A stretch of 20,225 bases of DNA from Treponema sp. (GCA_031265825.1 JAISCD010000019.1:1-20225), one strand, 5' to 3'. Shown: positions 3,258 to 20,225, counted from the stretch's first letter. Notes: a model not told the origin generated them from the letters alone. Translations and numbers: made by a program.

Positions 3258-4217
3258 ATGACGAAAGAAGAACTAGAATATAAAGTCGGTGCGCTCTTAT
3301 ACACGCCAGCGCTGTATCCCAATATTGCCGAAAAAATACACGACGGACAATTCCGTAGGGTCAATTCTCTTGCGTTTTGTCTTGAAGATTCCATTCAAGA
3401 TGCCTCCCTTGACAAGGCGGAACGCGCCCTGCTTCATTCGTTACGGACGCTCAATCTGACTATATGCAAACAAGATGCGCCGCTCTTGTTCGTCCGTATC
3501 CGTAATCCGCTCCACCTGAAACACATTCACGCCGCGCTTGGGCAAGACGCGCGGTTATTGACAGGCTACATCCTCCCAAAATTCGATGAAACCAATGCGG
3601 ACGATTATGTTAGGCTTGTCCATGAAATGAACGCAGGTGTAGATGAACCTTTCTTCGTCATGCCGATCCTAGAAACGACCCGCGTTGCTTATGTGGAGAC
3701 GCGCCATGACGCGCTCAAGGCGATCAAGCGAAGCATTGACGGCATAAGGGAGTATGTTTTGAACATTCGATGTGGAGGCAATGATTTCTGTAATATCTTC
3801 GGGGTTCGGCGTTCATTTAACCAGACTATTTACGAAATTGGCGTGGTCCGAGACATTCTGGTAGACATTCTCAACTACTTTTCCCGTTCTTATGTGGTAT
3901 CCGCGCCGGTGTGTGAATTTTTTGAAGACGGTGTATCTGACGCATGGAAGGAAATTCTACGAAAAGAGACGCGATTAGACAGGCTTAATGGGTTTGTTGG
4001 CAAGACAGCTATTCACCCTTCGCAAGTTCCGGTGATTGCGGAGTGTATGAAGGTTCCCAAAGCCGACTATGCGGACGCTCTCCAAATCAATCATTGGAAC
4101 GATCCTGAATTGGGTGTATCGCGGGGCGAAAATGGGCGCATGAACGAGGCAAAAGTTCACGGCGCATGGGCGCGGAAGGTTCTCCGCTTCGCCGAAATTT
4201 ACGGTATAGAAGAATGA
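3258..4217 (+). CDS. HpcH/HpaI aldolase / citrate lyase beta (CitE)-like family protein, probably a citryl- or malyl-CoA lyase-like enzyme
   Basis: Family landmarks appear in order: LLYTPAL (cf. LFVPG), AFCLEDSI (cf. DLEDAV), GYILPKFDE (cf. G-LPKVE), VMPILETTRV (cf. IETARGV), and GFVGKTAIHPSQVPVI (cf. GFDGKWAIHPSQI). Confidence 0.7.
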   Translation: MTKEELEYKVGALLYTPALYPNIAEKIHDGQFRRVNSLAFCLEDSIQDASLDKAERALLHSLRTLNLTICKQDAPLLFVRIRNPLHLKHIHAALGQDARLLTGYILPKFDETNADDYVRLVHEMNAGVDEPFFVMPILETTRVAYVETRHDALKAIKRSIDGIREYVLNIRCGGNDFCNIFGVRRSFNQTIYEIGVVRDILVDILNYFSRSYVVSAPVCEFFEDGVSDAWKEILRKETRLDRLNGFVGKTAIHPSQVPVIAECMKVPKADYADALQINHWNDPELGVSRGENGRMNEAKVHGAWARKVLRFAEIYGIEE

Positions 4218-4311
4218 TCGTGTTGACATTTCTCCTCAATTTTGTTAAAAGATTTTGAAAAAGAACTTGATAAAAAATACGGCAAGGATATTATATTTAT
4301 GGAGGAATAAC

Positions 4312-4782
4312 ATGGAAAATTTAGCATATAAAATTATAACCCCAAGGTTTATAGGACGTACAAAATATTCCAAATTGGTTCTCATAATGTCTTTTGTCTT
4401 GGTAGGGGCTTTTATTGGAATAATATATTCCTCCAAAAAGCCATCGGTTGATATTGATAATGGGGTTTTAACCATAAAATCATTGTTTTATGGAAAAAGT
4501 ATACCCATTGGGGAAATAAATGTAAACGGCGTCCAGCAGTTGAACTTAAATATTGATAAAGACTATAACATAAAAATCAGAACAAATGGAATAGGATTGC
4601 CGAATTATCATGTTGGTTGGATGCGATTAAATAATGGAAATAAGGCATTGGCATATTTAATGGATAAAACCAATGTAGTTTTAATTCCAACAAAAGACTA
4701 TGATGTTTTAATCAGTACAAAAGATTTTGACAGAATAAAAGAAGCGTTAAATGAAGGGATAAAAGTTGGTAAAGAGAAGTAA
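4312..4782 (+). CDS. membrane-anchored bacterial PH-domain (bPH_2/YdbT-like) protein. Hypothetical. Strongly AT-rich
   Basis: A GGAGG RBS precedes the ATG at 4312 (the track ORF starts earlier, at 4255). The N-terminus has a TM helix (LVLIMSFVLVGAFIGIIY) and is followed by a beta-rich ~120-aa domain reminiscent of bacterial PH domains. Its GC content is far below that of flanking housekeeping genes. Confidence 0.5.
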   Translation: MENLAYKIITPRFIGRTKYSKLVLIMSFVLVGAFIGIIYSSKKPSVDIDNGVLTIKSLFYGKSIPIGEINVNGVQQLNLNIDKDYNIKIRTNGIGLPNYHVGWMRLNNGNKALAYLMDKTNVVLIPTKDYDVLISTKDFDRIKEALNEGIKVGKEK

Positions 4783-4907
4783 ATGTCCGTCCTCATTTAT
4801 CTCCCCATAAATAATTAAATTGTTAAACAATGTCTCTGGGCGTTGTCAATCAACTGTATCAAATAAATATTCCAGAACTATTTTATTTTTTCCCCGCATT
4901 GCTATAC

Positions 4908-4960
4908 GCCAGACCCCGTTTTCTCAAGCGGGTTGAATGATTGCCGTCTCCGCATTTCCC
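4908..4960 (-). repeat. ~53-bp ghost copy of an internal segment of the endonuclease gene (homolog of 8503-8556), fused in-frame to array A
   Basis: tacgccagacccc(g)ttttctcaagcggRttgaatgattgccgtcYccgcatttcccc is present at both loci. It encodes GEMRGRQSFNPLEK in the endonuclease and GEMRRRQSFNPLEK at the C-terminus of the array ORF. A 1-nt indel then shifts the frame to a stop. Confidence 0.8.
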
Positions 4961-5376
4961 CGTCCACTCTCAAAGACCCGACATCCACTCTCAGAGACCC
5001 GACGTCCTCTCTCAAAGACCCGACTTCCACTCTCAGAGACCCGACTTCCACTCTTAAAGAGCCGACTTCCACTCTTAAAGAGCCGATTTCCTCTCTTTTA
5101 GACCCGACGTCCACTCTCAGAGAGCCGACACCCACTCTCAAAGACCCGACACCCACTCTCAAAGAGCCGATGTCCACTCTCAAAGACCCGACGTCCACTC
5201 TCAGAGAGCCGATTTCCACTCTCAGAGACCCGGCGTCCACTCTCAGAGACCCGACTTCCTCTCTCAGAGACCCGATGTCCACTCTCAAAGACCCGACATC
5301 CACTCTTTGAGAGCCGACATCCACTCTCAAAGAGCCGACGTCCTCTCTCAAAGAGCCGAAATCCACTCTCAGAGAG
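4961..5376. repeat. tandem array A: about 20 imperfect units of 21 bp (consensus tccactctcaRagaSccgacNt)
   Basis: Direct inspection shows strict 21-bp periodicity, with variation confined to a few positions. Each unit carries the palindrome (c)tctcAgaga(g), and many units also contain gacgtc. Both strands are open: + gives DPTSTLR heptads and - gives VGSLRVD heptads. Confidence 0.95.
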
Positions 5377-5384
5377 TAAAATAT

Positions 5385-5430
5385 CGCCGTGCTTTAACGT
5401 TATGCTGTTTTCTGTAGTCTTAATTTTGGG
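5385..5430 (-). repeat. ~46-bp ghost copy of the M1 3'-end / M2 5'-region junction (homolog of 6197-6242)
   Basis: atcgccgtgctttaRcgttatgYtgttttcYgtagtYttaatttt is present at both loci. In the real copy it encodes the last 11 aa of methyltransferase 1, and in another frame KIKTTENNITLKHGD, the N-terminal motif of methyltransferase 2. Confidence 0.8.
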
Positions 5431-5492
5431 CGCCACTTGACGCCTCTTTCTATTGCCGTCAAGGACGGCGGGCGAGACTGAGACTGTTACTT

Positions 5493-6152
5493 CTATAATA
5501 ATGACAATTCCATTGTCGTTTTATTGATCCTATCTTTTGCAATATTAAAATAATTATCATCAATTTCTATCCCAATAAATTTCCTTGCCAATTTCTTTGC
5601 CACTACTCCTGTTGTTCCACTACCCATAAATGGGTCTAAAATTGTATCTCCAATTCTACTACCCAATAATATAATACGCTTTAATAATGTCTCTGGCTTT
5701 TCCGTTGGGTGTTCCGTCAAATGTCTTTCCGCTGGTATTTCCCAAAGATTTTTCATCTGCTTTCCACCGTTTAATTCTTTTGCGGTATCATAATCAAAGA
5801 AATAGTTTTTTGTTTTGCTTGCAAGCCATATTAATTCAGTTGAAGGCGCAAGGCGATTCTTTGACAATAAAGGAGTAGCGTTCCTTTTAAACCATATAAT
5901 ATCGTTAATAATCCAATAATCAAGTTCTTTTAATAATACGCCAACGGAAGGGTGATTATGCAAGGTCCCAGACACCCATAATGTACCAGTATCCGATAAA
6001 ATCCTTTTACATTCTGTAAGCCACGCCCGATTAAAAGCATGAATATCATCAATAACATCCCATTTCCCTTTATCGCAGGCTACAGGTTTACCATTTTTAA
6101 CCGTAAGAAAACCTGCCCCTGACAAATTATAGGGGGGATCAGCAAAAATCAT
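5493..6152 (-). CDS. beta-class DNA amino-methyltransferase (N6-adenine or N4-cytosine), second methyltransferase of the R-M cassette. The N-terminus is anomalous
   Basis: Motif IV DPPYN lies at the N-terminus and motif I DPFMGSGTTG near the C-terminus, the beta permutation of the N6_N4_Mtase family. The gene is AT-rich. The conserved N-terminal segment is encoded upstream of the only ATG, which suggests an indel in the A-run at 6189-6193. Confidence 0.8.
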   Translation of the reverse strand: MIFADPPYNLSGAGFLTVKNGKPVACDKGKWDVIDDIHAFNRAWLTECKRILSDTGTLWVSGTLHNHPSVGVLLKELDYWIINDIIWFKRNATPLLSKNRLAPSTELIWLASKTKNYFFDYDTAKELNGGKQMKNLWEIPAERHLTEHPTEKPETLLKRIILLGSRIGDTILDPFMGSGTTGVVAKKLARKFIGIEIDDNYFNIAKDRINKTTMELSLL

Positions 6153-6211
6153 ATCTATACTTTTATCGGGAATATCTTTAATAAGAGTAAAAACATCGCC
6201 GTGCTTTAGCG

Positions 6212-7072
6212 TTATGTTGTTTTCCGTAGTTTTAATTTTAGACGCTCCTTTGCAACAAGAATATACTGTTCGTTTTTTTCAATGCCAATCCAATGGCGGT
6301 TTAATTCTTTCGCAACTTTCCCTGTTGTCCCTGTTCCGAAAAATGGATCCAGCACTATATCATTTTCATTCGACGATGCTTTAATAATTAACTCTAATAG
6401 TTTTTCCGGTTTTTGCGTCGGATGAACCGCACGCCCATTTGTTCCCTTAATGCGTTCTTTTCCCTGAACAATAGGTATTTCGATAAAATCAAAAAAATCA
6501 CGCATTTGCTTGCTATCACCATCTTTTGTCTTATGTGGGTTAAATTCTTTAACCTCGTTGTAATTAAAAATCCAATTTTTGCCTTTAACAAACCAGCACA
6601 CAAATTCCGTAGAATGGGTAAAAGTTCGTTTTGTAATATTTGGCATAGCATTAGTTTTATACCATGTTAAAATATTATTGAGTTTGAAGCCTACCTTTTT
6701 CCCTTCAATAAGAATTTCGCCGATATTATGTTGAGTACATGAAATATACAAACTGCCATTTGGCAAAAGAATCTTATGGCAAGCCTTCAACCAAGTTGCC
6801 GTGAACGTTACATAATCGAGATAATTAAAAGTATCCCAATCCTCATTCATTTTGTAATATGCACCACCAGTTTTGTTGTTTTTCAAATCAAGCGGCTTAC
6901 CGGATAAATTATAAGGCGGGTCGGCAAACACAAGATTTATTGAGTTTTCTTGTATTTGGGTTTCGAGTATTTGTACACAATCGCCTTGTATAATTTGATT
7001 AAGTGGTAATTTATGCGACAAGGGATATACCCCATTTGTTAATGATAGTCGGAATATTTGCCAACCAATCAT
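6212..7072 (-). CDS. beta-class DNA amino-methyltransferase (N6-adenine or N4-cytosine), first methyltransferase of the R-M cassette
   Basis: N-terminus IIQGDCVQILE...SINLVFADPPYNL (motif IV) and C-terminal VLDPFFGTGTTGKVA (motif I). The ATG at 7072 overlaps the endonuclease 3' end by 62 bp. An in-frame TTG near 7022 would reduce that overlap to 8 bp. Confidence 0.85.
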   Translation of the reverse strand: MIGWQIFRLSLTNGVYPLSHKLPLNQIIQGDCVQILETQIQENSINLVFADPPYNLSGKPLDLKNNKTGGAYYKMNEDWDTFNYLDYVTFTATWLKACHKILLPNGSLYISCTQHNIGEILIEGKKVGFKLNNILTWYKTNAMPNITKRTFTHSTEFVCWFVKGKNWIFNYNEVKEFNPHKTKDGDSKQMRDFFDFIEIPIVQGKERIKGTNGRAVHPTQKPEKLLELIIKASSNENDIVLDPFFGTGTTGKVAKELNRHWIGIEKNEQYILVAKERLKLKLRKTT

Positions 7073-8822
7073 CGGATTTTGTGAGTTCCTTCGATGATAA
7101 AACTATCGATTCAAACAATTCTTGTATCTTTTTATGCGATAGAAAATAGTCTTTGTTTTGTTTCTTTGCATCGAATAAATACTGTAATATTTCAATAAAC
7201 TGCTGAATAGTGATAGGAACGATGTTTTGTTTTTGTCCCTCATATTCATATTTTACGGAAAACCAAAAGGTGTTTCTGGTATCACGGTGGATTTTAGGAG
7301 CGACAAAAAGGCAATATGATTGTTTTTCATTATGCATCGCTTCAAAGTCTCTAAAATGCCGCATCACAGGCTGTCCTTCGTTAAACCATTGCGAACGGCT
7401 GGTTAATAATGTTACTTCACAGATTGAATTAAATGCTTGATAAAAACATTCAATGTCTGGTTTATTTGCCGGCGCGGTAAAGGTTGGCACATTGTCATCG
7501 CCTACAGGATAATTAGGATGAATTTCCAGCGCATCATTTAGGGCGTGTAAGCCGCTGGTAATAATTCGTTCCAATTCAACGGGCTTTTTACCAGCGAGTT
7601 TATGAATATTCTTTAAGTTAGTTATACAACTCTTTATATTTTCCAGTAATTGTAATTCCGCATGAACGCTTGCATCTGATAATTTGCGTCGATAGGAACG
7701 CAAATTTTCAATAGTCTTTTTTAGTGTAGTAGCATTATCATCTTTAGGTTTTATCTGCGGCATTTTGGGAAGGCTAATGCCTTTTGCTTTCATTATGTAC
7801 TCGGTTGTTTCAATGTCGGCGACTAATAATTTAATAACTTCCTGTAACTTCGTTTTATTTTCCCATGGCAATTCTGGCTGTGTAGCATCTCCTAAATACG
7901 TTGAGTATTCTGCTTTTAACGCGAATGTTTTTGCCGATGCGTTATCTGTTTCGATAATTGAATCAATCTCTATTTTTCGTCGCGGCTCTAGATCAATATA
8001 ATAATCATTTCCACGCAGATAAAAAAACCGAGTAAGGTGGAAGTTGCGTATTACATTATCCGCATAGTCTTTTGCGTTCCCCCATGACTCGTATTCGGAG
8101 AAATACTTATAAAAATATTCTTCCGCAAACTTTTCTATGCTTTCAGCAATTTTTACCTTTTGATAATCATTGCGGAATTTTAATATCTTTTCTGCCGTCT
8201 CTTCAATGTTTACATAGCTTGATAATGTTGTAAAGAACAAAGCGAATTCTATTTTTGATACGCCTTTTTCTTTTATACCTTGTCCAGCGCAAAGCGTATT
8301 TACTTTTTTAATTAAATGAAATGTAGCAATAAGTGGTTTAATATTGTAACCATCTTCTGCGGAATATTTATTCAGGTCAGGGTTGGGATATTGCCATTTA
8401 AGGAAACTACGAAAAAAAATATCGCCTAAATCGTAATTTTCGGATAAAAAAGCCTGTCCAAATGTGGTAACTTTTATTTTCTTTTCCGTATCAATATACG
8501 CCAGACCCATTTTCTCAAGCGGATTGAATGATTGCCGTCCCCGCATTTCCCCACCGCCTTTATAGTTTTTAGCGTTCAGTATTTCTTCCGCTTGTTCGTA
8601 GGTAAATGTATCGGAATGAAGCCATTCAAAGTGTTTTTTAGTTAATGTTTTTTCAAATTCGGGAATATTTATTCCGTATATTTTTCTCTGAAGCAGTAAT
8701 ATTTGGTAGCATTTCTGAGTTTCATCATTCCAAACTTCCCCCTCCAATTCCTTAAAAACCTTCAAGAAGGTACGTATCCGCTCGGGGTTTCTAACAGTTG
8801 TTGATATAGACCAAAGTCTCAT
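7011..8822 (-). CDS. putative type IIS restriction endonuclease, AlwI / N.BstNBI / PleI / MlyI-like (603 aa)
   Basis: A large ORF sits immediately upstream of, and co-oriented with, two strand-specific beta-class methyltransferases. That is the typical layout of a type IIS R-M system. Its size matches AlwI-family enzymes (~560-610 aa). Segments LKWQYP, PDIECFYQAFNSICEVT, QPVMRHF and YCLFVAPKI resemble AlwI-family (RE_AlwI) landmarks as I recall them. This was not verified by a search. A GAGGA RBS is present. Confidence 0.6.
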   Translation of the reverse strand: MRLWSISTTVRNPERIRTFLKVFKELEGEVWNDETQKCYQILLLQRKIYGINIPEFEKTLTKKHFEWLHSDTFTYEQAEEILNAKNYKGGGEMRGRQSFNPLEKMGLAYIDTEKKIKVTTFGQAFLSENYDLGDIFFRSFLKWQYPNPDLNKYSAEDGYNIKPLIATFHLIKKVNTLCAGQGIKEKGVSKIEFALFFTTLSSYVNIEETAEKILKFRNDYQKVKIAESIEKFAEEYFYKYFSEYESWGNAKDYADNVIRNFHLTRFFYLRGNDYYIDLEPRRKIEIDSIIETDNASAKTFALKAEYSTYLGDATQPELPWENKTKLQEVIKLLVADIETTEYIMKAKGISLPKMPQIKPKDDNATTLKKTIENLRSYRRKLSDASVHAELQLLENIKSCITNLKNIHKLAGKKPVELERIITSGLHALNDALEIHPNYPVGDDNVPTFTAPANKPDIECFYQAFNSICEVTLLTSRSQWFNEGQPVMRHFRDFEAMHNEKQSYCLFVAPKIHRDTRNTFWFSVKYEYEGQKQNIVPITIQQFIEILQYLFDAKKQNKDYFLSHKKIQELFESIVLSSKELTKSDDWLANIPTIINKWGISLVA

Positions 8823-8931
8823 ATATTCCTCATTATTATCATAAAGTTTTTATTTGTCCTTTATAATTTTCCCTTCAATTCATCAATTTCACTAATTAGT
8901 AAAGCAAAAACATTCTTATTTAATGAGTATC

Positions 8932-9245
8932 TTAATTCTCAGAGAGCCAACATCCACTCTCAGAGAGCCGATGTCCACTCTCAGAGACCCGTCATCCACT
9001 CTCAGAGACCCGATTTCCACTCTCAAAGAGCCGACATCCATTCTCAAAGAGCCGACGTCCACTCTCAGAGAGCCGATTTCCACTCTCAGAGAGCCGACTT
9101 CCACTCTCAAAGACCCGACGTCCTCTCTCAGAGACCCGACGTCCTCTCTTTTAGTCCCGACGTCCACTCTCAAAGAACCGACATCCACTCTCAGAGAGCC
9201 GACATCCACTCTCGGAGACCCGACGTCCACTCTCAAAGAGCCGAC
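8932..9245. repeat. tandem array B: about 15 units of the same 21-bp repeat (consensus tccactctcagagagccgacRt), in direct orientation to array A
   Basis: Direct inspection. The core palindrome ctctcAgagag (5-1-5) is cleaner here than in array A. On the minus strand the array lies 94 bp upstream of the endonuclease start codon. Confidence 0.95.
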
Positions 9246-9286
9246 GTCGGGTCTTTGAAAGTGAGTGGATACTCTCTGAGTATCCG
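9226..9286. repeat. terminal inverted repeat unit and hairpin pair closing array B
   Basis: The last unit is followed by its own near-exact reverse complement (ctcaaagagccgac|gtcgggtctttgaaag). A perfect 8-3-8 palindrome ggatactc-tct-gagtatcc follows, and it embeds the repeat core in inverted form. Confidence 0.7.
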
Positions 9287-9311
9287 ATACCGCGTTCTCG
9301 ATGGGTGCAGG

Positions 9312-9794
9312 TTAGGTTTCCGTCTCAACCTCGCTGGGTGTCCGCTTGCCGCCGGGGAAGCGGGTTCTCAGTTCCTCGTAGACCGCCTTTGCGCCGGGTA
9401 TATCCTGTTCCGCCGCCATTTTGACAGACTTGTAAAACACGAGGGCGGCTTGATAGGCTTCGCTTCCAGCTATCATTTCCGTGTCTTCTATGTTCTCATC
9501 AAGTTGCCGAATACTGTTGGCAAGCGTCCAAAGCCCGTGGGCGTCGTCAAAATCCACGCCGAAAGCGATTATATCAAGGTAGGTTGGGACAAAATTCGGA
9601 TTCTTCTTGGCAAAATCGTAGGATTTCTCCACAAAACTTATGGTTTTCTCACCCATTTTAGGCAATTCGTGCCGTTCAGTCGGGGTCAGAGCCATCACAT
9701 AGGGGGCTAAAAGCGTCTTGACCTCGTCAATCTTGGTCTGCGCCTGCGTCAAAACATCCTGCGGTATGGCTTGGACGTGTTTATTATCCTTCAT
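9312..9794 (-). CDS. hypothetical protein (160 aa)
   Basis: Clean ORF with a GAGGAG RBS (ttgactttGAGGAGattATG). Its GC content matches the housekeeping genes. No recognisable family. Confidence 0.6.
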   Translation of the reverse strand: MKDNKHVQAIPQDVLTQAQTKIDEVKTLLAPYVMALTPTERHELPKMGEKTISFVEKSYDFAKKNPNFVPTYLDIIAFGVDFDDAHGLWTLANSIRQLDENIEDTEMIAGSEAYQAALVFYKSVKMAAEQDIPGAKAVYEELRTRFPGGKRTPSEVETET

Positions 9795-10067: not shown

Positions 10068-10574
10068 ATGAAAAATTATTTTAGGTTTACGCTGTTGGTT
10101 CTCGTTGTTTTCTTTTCATTTCTGTCTTGTGAAGGTCTAACGATTGCTACGGTTGATTTTGATTATAATAAATTCAAAATTGAAAGATCGGCTTGGGAAA
10201 ATTCAAGCCCGCTTAATTATCAATATAAGTTATCAAATAGTGGCGGGGGAGAATATGTTCCCATTAACACTTTAATTATTGTTGAAAATGGACAATTTAA
10301 AGAACAAACTCCTCTTTCGGAATATGGAGAAGCAGGGGAAAATTATCAAACAATACATAAAGTTTACGAAACAATAGAAGATATTTATCAAAGATATAAT
10401 AATACCCAGCAATCTAAAAAAGATTTTTATTTAACAAAAATAAAAATAGAATATGATTCAAATCATGTTCCTCTAAAAACAGAGTATTATTATTACATTC
10501 CTCCATATTTAATGGATATGAGCACGTATTGGCGCTACGAAATAGAAAATTATAAAACAAATAGTAATGAGTAA
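10068..10574 (+). CDS. putative lipoprotein (168 aa), AT-rich
   Basis: GAAGGAG RBS. Signal peptide MKNYFRFTLLVLVVFFSFLSC ends in a lipobox-like FLSC with Cys at +1. The mature part is Tyr/Asn-rich and low in GC. No homolog recognised. Confidence 0.6.
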   Translation: MKNYFRFTLLVLVVFFSFLSCEGLTIATVDFDYNKFKIERSAWENSSPLNYQYKLSNSGGGEYVPINTLIIVENGQFKEQTPLSEYGEAGENYQTIHKVYETIEDIYQRYNNTQQSKKDFYLTKIKIEYDSNHVPLKTEYYYYIPPYLMDMSTYWRYEIENYKTNSNE

Positions 10575-10589
10575 TGAGGAAAGATGGGC

Positions 10590-11068
10590 GGGTGCCGCGG
10601 GTGTCAGAGACGTGAGGTGGCGGAGTAGGCGATGTCTGCGAGTGTCAGACGTGCGAGTTTTTTGGGGGTGGCGGAAGACCCGCGCAAGCGGGTCTGGAGA
10701 CAGGGGGGCGCACCGCAAGGGCGTCTGTGTGCCGTCCTCCGTTTAAGGAAAGACGCGCCCCCCTCATACAGAGAACAAATAGTAAAGAGCAGAGAGCAAT
10801 TAGTAAAGAGCAAAGGAAGAAGAGCCGTCCGAGGTGCAAACTGGGCGGCGCTTCGAGTGTCAGACATAAACAACGAATAGGCTCCGCTTGCTTGCAAGCG
10901 CACCCTTCGGGTGTTTTAAAGCGTCCTGCCTCGCCGTGCGTGTGGATTACCGAACATCGCGGAGGTTCCGCTTGCAAGGCAAGCGTAACCGTCCTGTCGG
11001 GGTCAGCGGCACACCCTTTCAAACAATAACCCGTGTGAAGTATTTAAACACCCGTTGGGTGTTTTTTT
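10590..11068 (+). repeat. GC-rich structured repeat element, copy L (inverted partner of 13152-13625)
   Basis: It aligns as a reverse complement with 13152-13625 over ~450 bp. It contains GTGTCAGAGAC and GTGTCAGAC palindromes, several stable hairpins, and an internal AGTAAAGAGC micro-repeat block. It ends in a perfect rho-independent terminator. The last ~20 codons of mazG are read from it on the opposite strand. Confidence 0.85.
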
Positions 11069-11915: not shown

Positions 11916-13151
11916 ATGAATACAGCATTAGAAAACCTGAGAGCCCGAGGATTTTTTCGGCAATGTACAGACGCGGAGCGGTTGTCCGCGCTCATGGACG
12001 AGGGTCCTGTTACGTTTTATGTGGGGTGCGACCCTACGGGATCGAGTCTTCACATCGGACACATGGTACCGTTTTTTGCGTTTCGGCACTTGCGCGCCGC
12101 GGGTCATCGTGGAATAGCCCTGATCGGCGGCGGTACGTCCCGCATCGGGGATCCTTCTGGCAAAACGTCCATGCGTCAAATGCTTGATTACGAGAAATTG
12201 GACGAAAACGCCGCTTCTATTACAAGGCAATTGGATGCTTTCTTGAACTTTGACGGACAAAATGCCTTCACCGCCAACAATAAGGATTGGCTCGCGGAAC
12301 TTAATTACATTGATTTCCTGCGCGATATAGGGAGGCATTTCTCTGTCAATCGTATGCTTTCCTTCGAGGCTTATCGTCTCCGTATGGAAACCGGGCTTTC
12401 GTTTCTTGAATTCAACTATCAGTTATTGCAGAGTTACGATTTCCTGCAATTATTCCGTAAACACGGGTGTCGTCTTCAGATAGGCGGGGATGATCAGTGG
12501 GGCAATATTGTCGCGGGTTCGGACTTGATTCGGCGGATTGACGGCGCGGAGGTGTTTGGTCTCACGTTCCCGCTTATCACCACAGCGGACGGCAAGAAGA
12601 TGGGCAAGACCGAGAAGGGCGCGCTCTTTCTTGACCCGTCTATCACTTCGCCTTATGACTTCTTCCAATATTGGCGGAATGTTCAGGACGCGGATATTAG
12701 GCGTTTCCTGCTCATGTTCACGTTTCTCTCTGTCGAAGAATGTACGGCTCTTACTGCGGAGGGCACGAGTCCCAACAACGCGAAGGAAAGGCTTGCCTGG
12801 GAGGTAACGGCTCTCATACACGGGAGGGATGCGGCGAATCGCGCGCTTGCCGGCGCACGCGCGAGTTTCGGCGGTTCGGGTGGCGATAAGTCCGCGGTAC
12901 CGACCGTCTCTCTTGCTATGGATAAGTTCGACGCGGGTTATAACATCGTCGATTTGTTCACAGATGCGGGGCTTTGTTCCACGAAGAGCGAGGCGCGGCG
13001 TCTTGTCCAGCAGGGCGGCGCATTTGTGAGCTGTGACGACGAGGGGTTCGTAGCCATAACGGATCCGAAAGCCGTGGTGGGTTTTTCAGAAGAATTGGTT
13101 CTTCGTGCAGGCAAGAAGCGCACCCTTCGGCTGCACCCGAAGGCTGTTTAA
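11916..13151 (+). CDS. tyrS: tyrosine--tRNA ligase
   Basis: Class I motifs HIGH (SLHIGHMVPF) and KMSKS (KKMGKTE) are present. A C-terminal S4-like domain ends the protein. It is divergent from mazG with a 64-bp intergenic gap, too short for a T-box leader. Confidence 0.95.
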   Translation: MNTALENLRARGFFRQCTDAERLSALMDEGPVTFYVGCDPTGSSLHIGHMVPFFAFRHLRAAGHRGIALIGGGTSRIGDPSGKTSMRQMLDYEKLDENAASITRQLDAFLNFDGQNAFTANNKDWLAELNYIDFLRDIGRHFSVNRMLSFEAYRLRMETGLSFLEFNYQLLQSYDFLQLFRKHGCRLQIGGDDQWGNIVAGSDLIRRIDGAEVFGLTFPLITTADGKKMGKTEKGALFLDPSITSPYDFFQYWRNVQDADIRRFLLMFTFLSVEECTALTAEGTSPNNAKERLAWEVTALIHGRDAANRALAGARASFGGSGGDKSAVPTVSLAMDKFDAGYNIVDLFTDAGLCSTKSEARRLVQQGGAFVSCDDEGFVAITDPKAVVGFSEELVLRAGKKRTLRLHPKAV

Positions 13152-13625
13152 CGACTTCACACGGGTTGTTGTACGAAAGGCGGACCCGCTGTCCCCGCAC
13201 CCTTCGGGTGTTGGACAACTTCACAATGGTTGTTGTTTGAAAGGTTGACCCGCTGACCCCGTCTTGACGGTTACGCTTGTCTTGCAAGCGGAACCTGCTC
13301 GTTGTTTATGTCTGACACCCGAAGCACACCCGAAGCGCCGCCCGGCTTGCACCTCGGACGGCTCTTCTTCCTTTGCTCATTGCTCATTACTAACTGCTAA
13401 TTGCTCTCTCCCCTCTGCTAACTGCTAACTATTCATTACTCACTAGTATGAGGGGGGCGCATCTTTCCCTAAACGTGATTGGCACACAGACGCCCTTGCG
13501 GTGCGCCCCCCTGTCTCCAGACCGCCCCCGCGTGGCGGGTTTAAAAGGGGCGGTCTTCCGCCACCCCCCAAAACTTGCACCTCTGACACCATCGCCTCCG
13601 CCCGCCTGCCGGTGCCTACCCGCCG
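13152..13625 (-). repeat. GC-rich structured repeat element, copy R (inverted partner of 10590-11068)
   Basis: Reverse-complement alignment with copy L. It starts exactly at the tyrS stop. It contains a tandem internal duplication of a ~47-bp module (13154-13200 and 13215-13262), an expanded TTAGCAG-type micro-repeat block, and a hairpin whose stem sequence differs from L while staying complementary. Confidence 0.85.
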
Positions 13626-13676: not shown

Positions 13677-13890
13677 TGTCAGGCATCGCCCCGAAACTCC
13701 GCCCTGTGCCTGCGGTGTCAGACATCGCCTTACTCCACCGCCCGGCGTGGTGTCAGTCATTATACTTTTATGTCTGCGTACCGGGGGTGCGGCGGCGTGC
13801 GTGCGGTGTCAGACATGGGCTATTCAGCGTGGTGTCAGACACTATACCTGCGTATCGGGACATAGGCTTATTACGGCTAGGTGTCAGACA
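13677..13890 (+). repeat. row of six direct GGTGTCAGACAY palindromic motifs spaced at 30-57 bp
   Basis: Motif starts at 13677, 13716, 13750, 13807, 13837 and 13881, all in the same orientation. The core GTGTC-A-GACAC is a 5-1-5 palindrome. Confidence 0.85.
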
Positions 13891-14172
13891 TCTTGTCTTA
13901 ACTCTGCGCCATCTTGTCTTAACTCTGCGCCATCTTGTCTCAACTCTGCACCATCTTGTCTCAACTCCGCGCCATCTTGTCTCAACTCCGCTCCATCTTG
14001 TCTTAACTCTGCTCCATCTTGTCTTAACTCTGCTCCATCTTGTCTCAACTCTGCGGCATCTTGTCTCAACTCTACGCCATCTTGTCTCAACTCTGTCGTA
14101 TCTTGTCTTAACTCTGCGCCATCTTGTCTCAACTCTGCGCCATCTTGTCTCAACTCTATGGCATCTTGTCTC
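13889..14172. repeat. tandem array C: about 13.5 units of a different 21-bp repeat (catcttgtctYaactctgcgc)
   Basis: Direct inspection. The array is bracketed on both sides by GTCAGACAT motifs. The left boundary forms a 5-3-5 palindrome agaca-tct-tgtct. Confidence 0.95.
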
Positions 14173-14189
14173 TGTCAGACATCGGGACT

Positions 14190-14282
14190 ATGTTTGGGGA
14201 GGGGGTAGCGTAAGACCGATCCTTTTAAACCAGCTACGCGGGGGACGAGCTGGAGACAGGGGGCGCACCACAAGGATATGAG
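14190..14282 (+). repeat. third, partial copy of the element core (same orientation as copy L)
   Basis: aagaccgatccttttaaaccagctacgcgggggacgagctggagacagggggcgcaccacaagg matches the L/R core (ggcggaagacc...ctggagacaggggggcgcaccgcaagg). Confidence 0.7.
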
Positions 14283-19790: not shown

Positions 19791-20225
19791 AGGCGTTGTG
19801 GTGCCAGACACCCGCGAAAGTGCCAGACACCAGCGCCTAGCCCCCGTGCCCTGACCCCGCCCGCCCGTCTTTCCTTTGCTAACTGCTAACTGCTAATTGC
19901 TAACTGCTCTCTGAAAAAAGGCGTTATGGTGCCCGCGAGGGCGTTGCGGTGTCTGACACCAGCGCCTAGCCACCGTGTCCTGCCCCCGCCTGCCCGTCTT
20001 TCCTTTGCTACCTGCTACCTGCTAACCACTAACTGCTACCTGCTCTCTGCTAATTGCTAACTGCTCTCTGCTAACTGCTCTCTGAAAAAAGGCGTTATGG
20101 TGCCAGACACCAGCGCCTAGCCCCCGTGTCCTGCCCCCGCCCGCCCGTCTTTCCGTTGCTAACTGCTCTCAGCTAACAGCTCTCAGAAAAAAGGCGTTGT
20201 GGGGACAGAAACCCGCGCCCAGCCG
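19791..20225 (+). repeat. composite tandem repeats of 123, 171 and 102 bp, with a fourth truncated by the window end. Each holds a variable block of CTGCTAA/CTGCTAC heptamers
   Basis: Units start at ~19791, 19914, 20085 and 20187. The module order is aaaaaaggcgttRtggtgcc-agacacc-agcgcctagcccccgtgYcctgMccccgccYgcccgtctttcc-(ttgcta + heptamer x3-10)-ctctctg. The first modules are related to 13575-13680 of element R. Confidence 0.9.

Follow-up and report, generated by a model that had tools for sequence, protein, structure and literature searches.

The restriction-modification cassette and its site

The window (the whole stretch of DNA that was analysed, a 20,225 bp contig of Treponema sp. with a G+C content of ~50%) carries on its minus strand, at 5494 to ~8840, a restriction-modification (R-M) cassette that consists of an endonuclease gene (R) followed by two methyltransferase genes (M1 and M2) and has a G+C content of ~35% against ~50% for the host. 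The cassette lies between two tandem arrays of a 21-bp unit, A and B, and array A is bounded on both sides by cassette-derived DNA, here denoted ghost a' and ghost j'. The features are:

4234-4763, plus strand: bPH_5 (bacterial PH domain) gene module, the left neighbour (PF10882, E 2.8e-13)
4764-4880, minus strand: unique AT-rich spacer, matching neither the cassette and its relatives nor the bPH_5 loci in DNA comparisons
4881-4961, minus strand: ghost a', decayed endonuclease codons 91-117 (blastn E 1.2e-19)
4962-5377, no strand assigned: array A, 19.8 tandem 21-bp units (TCCACTCTCARAGASCCGAYN; TRF score 494)
5378-5438, minus strand: ghost j', decayed M1 3' end, M2 ribosome-binding region and first ~17 M2 codons (E 3.2e-14)
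5439-5492, no strand assigned: spacer x, non-cassette DNA rich in G+C that separates j' from the M2 stop (from the sequence)
5493-6245, minus strand: M2, second N6/N4 DNA methyltransferase (PF01555, E 1.5e-54; colinear with relatives)
6190-6250, minus strand: source segment j, with the M1 stop (6212-6214), the AAGGAG box (6245-6250) and the M2 start region
6212-7072, minus strand: M1, first N6/N4 DNA methyltransferase (PF01555, E 2.7e-60)
7011-8822, minus strand: R, AlwI-family type II restriction endonuclease, 603 aa, full length as in relatives (PF09491, E 1.8e-82)
8472-8552, minus strand: source segment a, within R (codons 91-117; from the alignment with a')
8823-8937, no strand assigned: spacer s, AT-rich, upstream of R; past ~8844 not common to the cassette relatives
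8938-9248, no strand assigned: array B, 14.9 units of the same 21-bp family and orientation as array A (TRF score 393)
9228-9280, no strand assigned: palindromic turn (CGACGTCG) followed by ~1.5 inverted units, closing array B (inverted repeats I2 and I7)

The R protein covers positions 2-441 of the 441 positions of the RE_AlwI profile, PF09491, and its gene has the two PF01555 methyltransferase genes directly downstream; the system is predicted to be a type II(S) R-M system of the AlwI family. In type IIS systems whose site is asymmetric, each strand usually has its own methyltransferase. There are 2263 homologues of R, the closest of which are ~80% identical and likewise 603 aa long, and exact-protein look-ups with R and with its 160-aa neighbour (an ORF at 9312-9794 on the minus strand, the 3' end of which adjoins the palindromic turn of array B) return nothing on record. 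A plasmid search identifies just distant AlwI-family genes (at most 26% identical), an Rfam search of the window yields no family, and no integrase or transposase domain is found among the window ORFs submitted to Pfam. The counts of GGATC and GAGTC, the candidate recognition sites, are uninformative. Over the whole window, GATC is found 32 times, fewer than the ~78 copies predicted from base composition, and the count of GGATC is 17 against ~35 expected.

The start of M2 is atypical, with no ATG, GTG or TTG near the true N-terminus (window 6212-6250). Where the relative locus L005 has the classic ATGA overlap with the M1 stop, the window has ATAA, formed with an ATA codon (6215-6213), and an ATT (6236-6234) is located 8 nt past the AAGGAG box. 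This arrangement suggests non-canonical or coupled initiation of M2.

Relatives with the same R-M1-M2 order are present in 18 loci, namely 17 metagenome loci and one locus from a Spirochaetaceae metagenome-assembled genome (L031). The eleven best-matching loci show 69-81% nucleotide identity to the window cassette, and the homology of the relatives to the window is confined to 5494-~8840, with a left limit at 5494-5550 that adjoins the 54-nt spacer x (which contains a hairpin, GCCGTC-AAG-GACGGC, at 5455-5469). Neither the 21-bp array, nor any flanking tandem array, nor any ghost is found in the 17 metagenome loci or in L031. Two of these relatives have flanking repeats of another, non-tandem kind. 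In L031, a 122-bp direct repeat (97.5% identical, 6529-6649 and 10101-10221) abuts the M2 stop, and L005 has a 182-bp direct repeat (93% identical) whose copies occupy 7-188 and 5507-5688; a third one lies at 802-987. Both loci come from spirochaete-community genomes. By sequence comparison, the cassette is shown to be an AT-rich, horizontally mobile module that lies between two direct-repeat blocks. The presence of flanking direct repeats in three independent members of the cassette family is a useful lead on how R-M systems move without a recombinase of their own.

The host site can be delineated by comparison with L021, a related Treponema and the closest syntenic relative (81% amino acid identity in the lyase), in which the lyase and MazG genes are just 272 bp apart. 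The synteny breaks at window position 4213 and resumes at 11066, so that a 6.85-kb island, composed of the bPH_5 module, the arrays, the cassette, the 160-aa ORF and a DUF6174 gene, is absent from L021; the corresponding site of L021 holds a 23-bp x 9.2 tandem array (unit AACTAAGGCAGGCGATACCTACT, L021:10990-11201), which is unrelated to the 21-bp unit of the window. In L022, L025 and L027, other genes occupy the site that corresponds to the island. The lyase-MazG site thus seems, from these comparisons, to be a hot spot for tandem arrays and gene insertion. We infer that the arrays belong to the host and not to the cassette, because the matching site of L021 holds only the unrelated 23-bp array. 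Also bearing on a host origin is the only related array detected in a scan of the genome collection for a two-unit array pattern (a scan of viral contigs found none): it is located in a Spirochaetaceae metagenome-assembled genome (L001:449-758), is intergenic, has a 42-bp (2 x 21) period, reads IGSLREEIGSLRML and is not accompanied by R-M genes. The bPH_5 gene shows ~81-83% nucleotide identity to L028, L029 and L030, the contexts of which are unrelated; the homology ends at 4763, and the last six codons of the gene (4764-4782) are unique to the window. No intact cassette is encoded beside the bPH_5 homologues in these other contigs. The search for a related strain that has an intact second copy of the cassette, or a single array at the site, found none; the contigs L019 and L020, which are 93% identical, end within the bPH_5 gene.

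Further repeats are scattered over the right part of the window. Inverted repeats of ~400 bp (72-83% identity, 10642-11061 vs 13134-13589) flank the MazG-TyrRS gene pair; a third 21-bp array (13889-14172, 13.5 units, CATCTTGTCTCAACTCTGCGC) lies between two 75-nt inverted repeats (85%, 13494-13568 and 14201-14275); and about ten copies of the motif GGTGTCAGACAT are found in 10600-10860 and 13680-14180, the motif also being present in a 153-bp repeat of L027. This motif and the repeats of the third array appear to form a mosaic family of intergenic repeats. The right end of the contig also has heptamer (TGCTAAC) and 21-bp arrays (19877-20186), with related copies near 13368-13444.

Decayed cassette fragments on both sides of array A

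The similarity of ghost a' to the endonuclease gene extends over 81 nt (4881-4961 vs 8472-8552, same strand), with 86.6% identity over 82 columns and two 1-nt gaps, and within it a core (4915-4961 vs 8506-8552) is identical at 44 of 47 positions (94%). The local alignment score is 103, compared to 19.6 +/- 2.2 in 500 shuffles (37 SD above the mean). When translated, a' reads GEMRRRQSFNPLEKTGSGV followed by a stop, the resident R having GEMRGRQSFNPLEKMGLAYID at residues 91-117; a 1-nt insertion near 4914 shifts the frame and results in a stop at 4902-4904. Among 12 relatives, a' is closest to the resident R (81% vs 75% or less, over a padded 89-nt span that includes 8 nt of the array). A preceding reading of the window from its sequence alone had reported a 53-bp copy of an internal endonuclease segment with a 1-nt indel and a stop. 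The copy and the lesion are both real, and the copy is longer than reported; the source segment, given as 8503-8556, ends at 8552 rather than at 8556.

Ghost j' corresponds to the M1/M2 junction (5378-5438 vs 6190-6250, same strand) with 85% identity over 61 nt in an ungapped alignment; an alternative alignment (5373-5433 vs 6184-6245) yields 87% over 62 columns (E 3.2e-14). Its local alignment score, 77, is 25 SD above the mean of 500 shuffles (19.9 +/- 2.2). This fragment, of which the sequence-only reading had recognized the part from 5385 to 5430, includes the stop codon of M1 and ~17 codons from the start of M2 (APKIKTTENSITLKHGD vs ASKIKTTENNITLKHGD in the resident gene), and its ribosome-binding box, as read from the sequence, has decayed from AAGGAG to AAGTGG. 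At the joint between array A and j', AGAG (5374-5377) is in common with the source (…CAGAGAG|TAAAAT vs …TAAGAG|TAAAAA), whereas the microhomology at the a'/array A joint is at most 1 nt.

The 21-bp unit does not explain these similarities because, within the window, the core pattern of the array is confined to 4967-5359 and 8936-9261; the sources are in R and in the M1/M2 junction. The view of the sequence-only reading that the fragments are real cassette relics and record a recombination event is supported. As expected of pseudogene fragments, both ghosts combine significant similarity to the parent with truncation (to 81 and 61 nt) and disabling lesions. The closest match of each is the resident cassette (compared with 11 relatives for a' and 4 for j'), with which they have resident-specific states in common, e.g., GGGGAAATGCGG and CTTGAGAAAA; at one position, j' keeps the outgroup state and the resident has changed. 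The differences from the resident are mostly ghost-specific and include non-synonymous changes and the frameshift. Given this proximity to the resident, these ghost-specific differences and the ~13% divergence, the ghosts are paralogous fragments in decay that stem from the resident lineage or from a sister very close to it. The nearly equal divergence of a' and j' from their sources (86.6% and 87% identity) is consistent with a single episode.

On the minus strand, the order is j' (5438->5378), array A (5377->4962), a' (4961->4881), whereas in the resident cassette the R fragment (8552-8472) precedes the junction (6250-6190). The ghosts are thus circularly permuted relative to the cassette, as would be predicted for the joint between two putative head-to-tail copies. 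The proposal that the left end is a cassette copy with its middle replaced by the array is not supported, given that such a copy would have the R fragment, the array and the junction in the opposite order to that observed.

No other fragments of this kind are detectable in 4764-4880, 5439-5493, 8823-8937 and 9249-9311 in DNA or tblastx comparisons with the cassette, the fetched loci and the window itself. At the protein level, 4845-4777 reads QRPETLFNNLIIYGEINEDGHLL and resembles the KPETLL motif of the methyltransferase; the best protein score, 38, is reached by 11 of 1000 shuffles, and there is neither a Pfam match nor significance at the DNA level. This is suggestive only of a third, very weak cassette relic. 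If real, it is located downstream of a' on the minus strand, so that R followed by M would be colinear with a decayed copy of the cassette.

Arrays A and B (416 and 311 bp) are in the same orientation, with ~84% unit identity, and have in common a longest exact run of 41 nt and nineteen 25-mers; the longest uninterrupted identities between the ghosts and their sources are 16 and 14 nt. The arrays thus appear to be the dominant direct repeats for cassette loss or amplification, and it is the arrays, and not the ghosts, that would be able to delete or amplify the cassette. The suggestion that the ghosts themselves serve as deletion repeats is accordingly hard to maintain, as they are poor recombination substrates. 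Of the deletions proposed on this basis, one is correctly delimited in that the j'/j pair brackets M2, and recombination between these copies would remove M2 together with spacer x. The other, said to remove the endonuclease body plus M1, would in fact take out array A, j', M2, M1 and codons 118-603 of R, almost the entire cassette.

With array A stopping at position 15 of the unit and array B starting at position 6/7, the removal of 5378-8937 would restore an in-phase array via a 9-10-nt overlap, (T)CTCAGAGAG. This overlap alone is not evidence of a target-site duplication because any pair of borders yields an overlap or a gap; it is likewise compatible with one array split by insertion. The order of the units in A and B shows no correspondence (1571 of 2000 shuffles do as well), and the unit distances within and between the arrays are equal (3.4/3.3/3.3), so that neither duplication of an array nor the split of one array is demonstrable. 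The unit can also be described as two small palindromes, GACGTC and CTCTC-A-GAGAG.

Possible histories of the locus

Taken together, the ghosts are very probably non-functional scars of duplicative or illegitimate recombination that involved the cassette lineage and the array. As to the course of events, a history in which array and cassette were duplicated, the joint received a templated filler and the extra copy eroded is tentatively favoured. The cassette would first have arrived beside, or inside, a 21-bp array of the host. The segment that consists of the array, upstream spacer, R, M1, M2 and spacer x would then have been duplicated head to tail, a kind of duplication that flanking direct repeats promote. 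The new joint (x | array) may have gained a 61-nt filler from the nearby M1/M2 junction by a template switch with AGAG microhomology. Subsequently, the distal copy would have been eroded by illegitimate deletions, leaving R codons 91-117 fused to the array and perhaps the methyltransferase-motif scrap at 4845-4777, after which the ~13% divergence would have accumulated and slippage scrambled the arrays.

Such a history requires two copies, one filler and a few deletions. In its favour are the non-random nature of the ghosts, their permuted order, their proximity to the resident and similar divergence, the colinearity of a' and the weak PETL scrap with R followed by M, the presence of the cassette core in 18 loci without this array or any ghost, the array-only spacer of L021, the related arrays of L001 and P0369, the flanking repeats of L031 and L005, and the published amplification of R-M complexes via such repeats (PMC2853133). 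Several illegitimate deletions have to be assumed because tandem duplications normally collapse cleanly, without a scar, by homologous recombination. The lack of correspondence in unit order between A and B, the a'/array joint with at most 1 nt of microhomology and the third relic without DNA-level significance count against this scheme, as does the failure to find a related strain with an intact second copy or with a single array at the site. Moreover, the L031 repeats abut the cassette without ghosts, so that a flanking-repeat configuration can arise without a decayed second copy.

Alternatively, the fragments could have been inserted as a mosaic of patches, [a'-array-j'], in one complex template-switching event of the MMBIR/FoSTeS type, without a full second cassette ever having existed. 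Replication would have copied ~81 nt of R, ~400 nt of array and ~61 nt of the M1/M2 junction before resuming, perhaps in the same insertion event that created the flanking duplication, and a single event would then account for both the flanking direct repeat and the ghosts. The patches are indeed short (61-81 nt), directly oriented, non-colinear, equally diverged and drawn from within 3.6 kb, with AGAG at the array/j' joint, and the MMBIR model describes discontinuous templated segments with junction microhomology (PMC2621351). However, microhomology does not exceed 1 nt where a' meets the array, A and B do not correspond in the order of their units, a decayed gene copy is the better fit for the possible PETL scrap that is colinear with a', and L031 and L005 have flanking repeats but no patches. 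This course of events is considered unlikely.

Serial occupancy of the site is about as improbable. Under this scenario, one or two earlier, closely related cassettes next to the array at the hypervariable lyase-MazG site were mostly deleted, and the present cassette arrived later, possibly anchored by remnant homology. The variability of the site is conspicuous (where the window has the 6.85-kb island, L021 has a 272-bp spacer with just an array, and other genes are found in L022, L025 and L027), the ~13% divergence of the ghosts is not far below the 19-21% that separates the resident from its nearest known relatives, and the outgroup state kept at one position of j' points in the same direction. 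Against this, the ghosts have the resident-specific states GGGGAAATGCGG and CTTGAGAAAA, most of their differences are unique to them, and the permuted order would need at least two earlier partial copies.

It is highly improbable that the region is a functional chimeric gene in which an array-encoded heptad-repeat protein, read on the minus strand, borrows the M2 start and a tail derived from R. A minus-strand frame, (V/I)GSLR(V/E)(D/E), is open across all of array A and continues directly into GEMRRRQSFNPLEK of a'. Unit polymorphism in the window arrays and in L001:449-758 is confined to positions 4, 9, 11, 15, 20 and 21, of which three (9, 15 and 21) are third codon positions of the minus-strand heptad, the change at position 11 being also synonymous (Leu). 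Similar ORFs can be read over related arrays, namely that of L001 and P0369, an ORF over a sister array with an unrelated flank that reads GSLRVDV. However, any stop-free 21-bp unit yields long ORFs, and the in-frame fusion of array and a' carries little weight because two of the three minus-strand unit frames are open. The claim of the sequence-only reading that a' follows the array in frame holds for one of these frames; the start of M2' is in the other, that is, in a different frame from the a' tail. In addition, the ribosome-binding box is degraded, the a' tail is frameshifted, and the array at the same site in L021 has a 23-bp unit and cannot be coding. The array ORF belongs to no Pfam family, and a search of representative proteins yields mostly generic heptad or coiled-coil matches in addition to P0369.

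Least probable of all is a chance similarity or an assembly artefact, which the metagenomic, repeat-containing nature of the contig might suggest, given E-values of 1e-19 and 3e-14, z-scores of 37 and 25 against shuffles, ghosts that are ~13% off their sources where duplication by an assembler would give identical copies, and arrays that have no exact run above 41 nt in common. Derivation of the ghosts from the 21-bp unit, by chance or through assembly was rejected on the confinement of the array pattern, the E-values and the divergence.

Comparison with known systems

With respect to gene content, the window system resembles the AlwI-family type IIS systems in that R aligns with PF09491 over the full profile and has two N6_N4 methyltransferase genes downstream; it differs from the plasmid-borne members in sequence (26% identity or less) and in the lack of a canonical start codon in M2.

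With respect to the surroundings, R-M gene complexes "flanked by direct repeats" have been described, and such repeats are reported, in an account that relies on its references 37 and 84, to support amplification (PMC2853133). The closest parallel is the R-M complex inserted with a long target duplication (Furuta et al. 2010, PMC2853133). As in those cases, a small insert (~3.5 kb) with R and M genes but without integrase or transposase has an atypical G+C content and is located between direct repeats of hundreds of base pairs; the original H. pylori cases are also type IIS-like, and the same configuration is seen in the L031 (122-bp) and L005 (182-bp) members of the cassette family. The definition used there comprises R and M genes within less than 20 kb, no other mobility genes and flanking direct repeats of more than 30 bp, and the insert in the window (5378-8937, 3.56 kb) contains R, M1 and M2 between repeats of 416 and 311 bp. 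The differences are that the repeats in the window are tandem 21-bp arrays rather than unique sequence, that one of them has decayed cassette fragments at its borders, a feature absent from the classic cases, and that no empty site with a single array copy was found: the sole syntenic relative, L021, has the unrelated 23-bp array, and the contigs of closer strains end before the array.

Amplification of an R-M complex via flanking direct repeats (Sadykov et al. 2003, cited as reference 84 in PMC2853133) provides a second parallel. It would yield head-to-tail copies, and the order of the ghosts (M end, repeat, R) is that of an inter-copy joint. In that study, as represented in the citing paper, the amplification is experimental and the copies are intact, whereas the window has only eroded scraps, one extra filler segment has to be assumed, and the amplification is putative. 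The junctions of MMBIR/FoSTeS events (PMC2621351) are similar in the short, nearby-templated, non-colinear segments and in the microhomology at one joint. Here, however, the event would be old (~13% diverged) and its junction signatures are blurred: array and j' meet with 4 nt (AGAG), whereas the a'/array joint, with no more than 1 nt, is essentially without microhomology.

The scars could, although this is doubtful, be the footprint of the proposed "virus-like" cycle of a selfish type IIS R-M system in an uncultured Treponema, with insertion between long direct repeats, head-to-tail amplification via those repeats (here the host 21-bp array) and later collapse. A further possibility is that cleavage by the system itself set off the rearrangement, with repair by template switching. 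Judging from the permuted relics, the locus has already undergone one or more duplicative or illegitimate events, and the ghosts are a small, datable record of a mobile R-M cassette that rearranges its surroundings. The relics have no evident function and do not represent a new kind of system. With a selfish R-M complex placed between long direct repeats, the locus adds a new case to a known situation, and is unusual in that these repeats are tandem arrays, one of which is bracketed by permuted pseudogene scraps.
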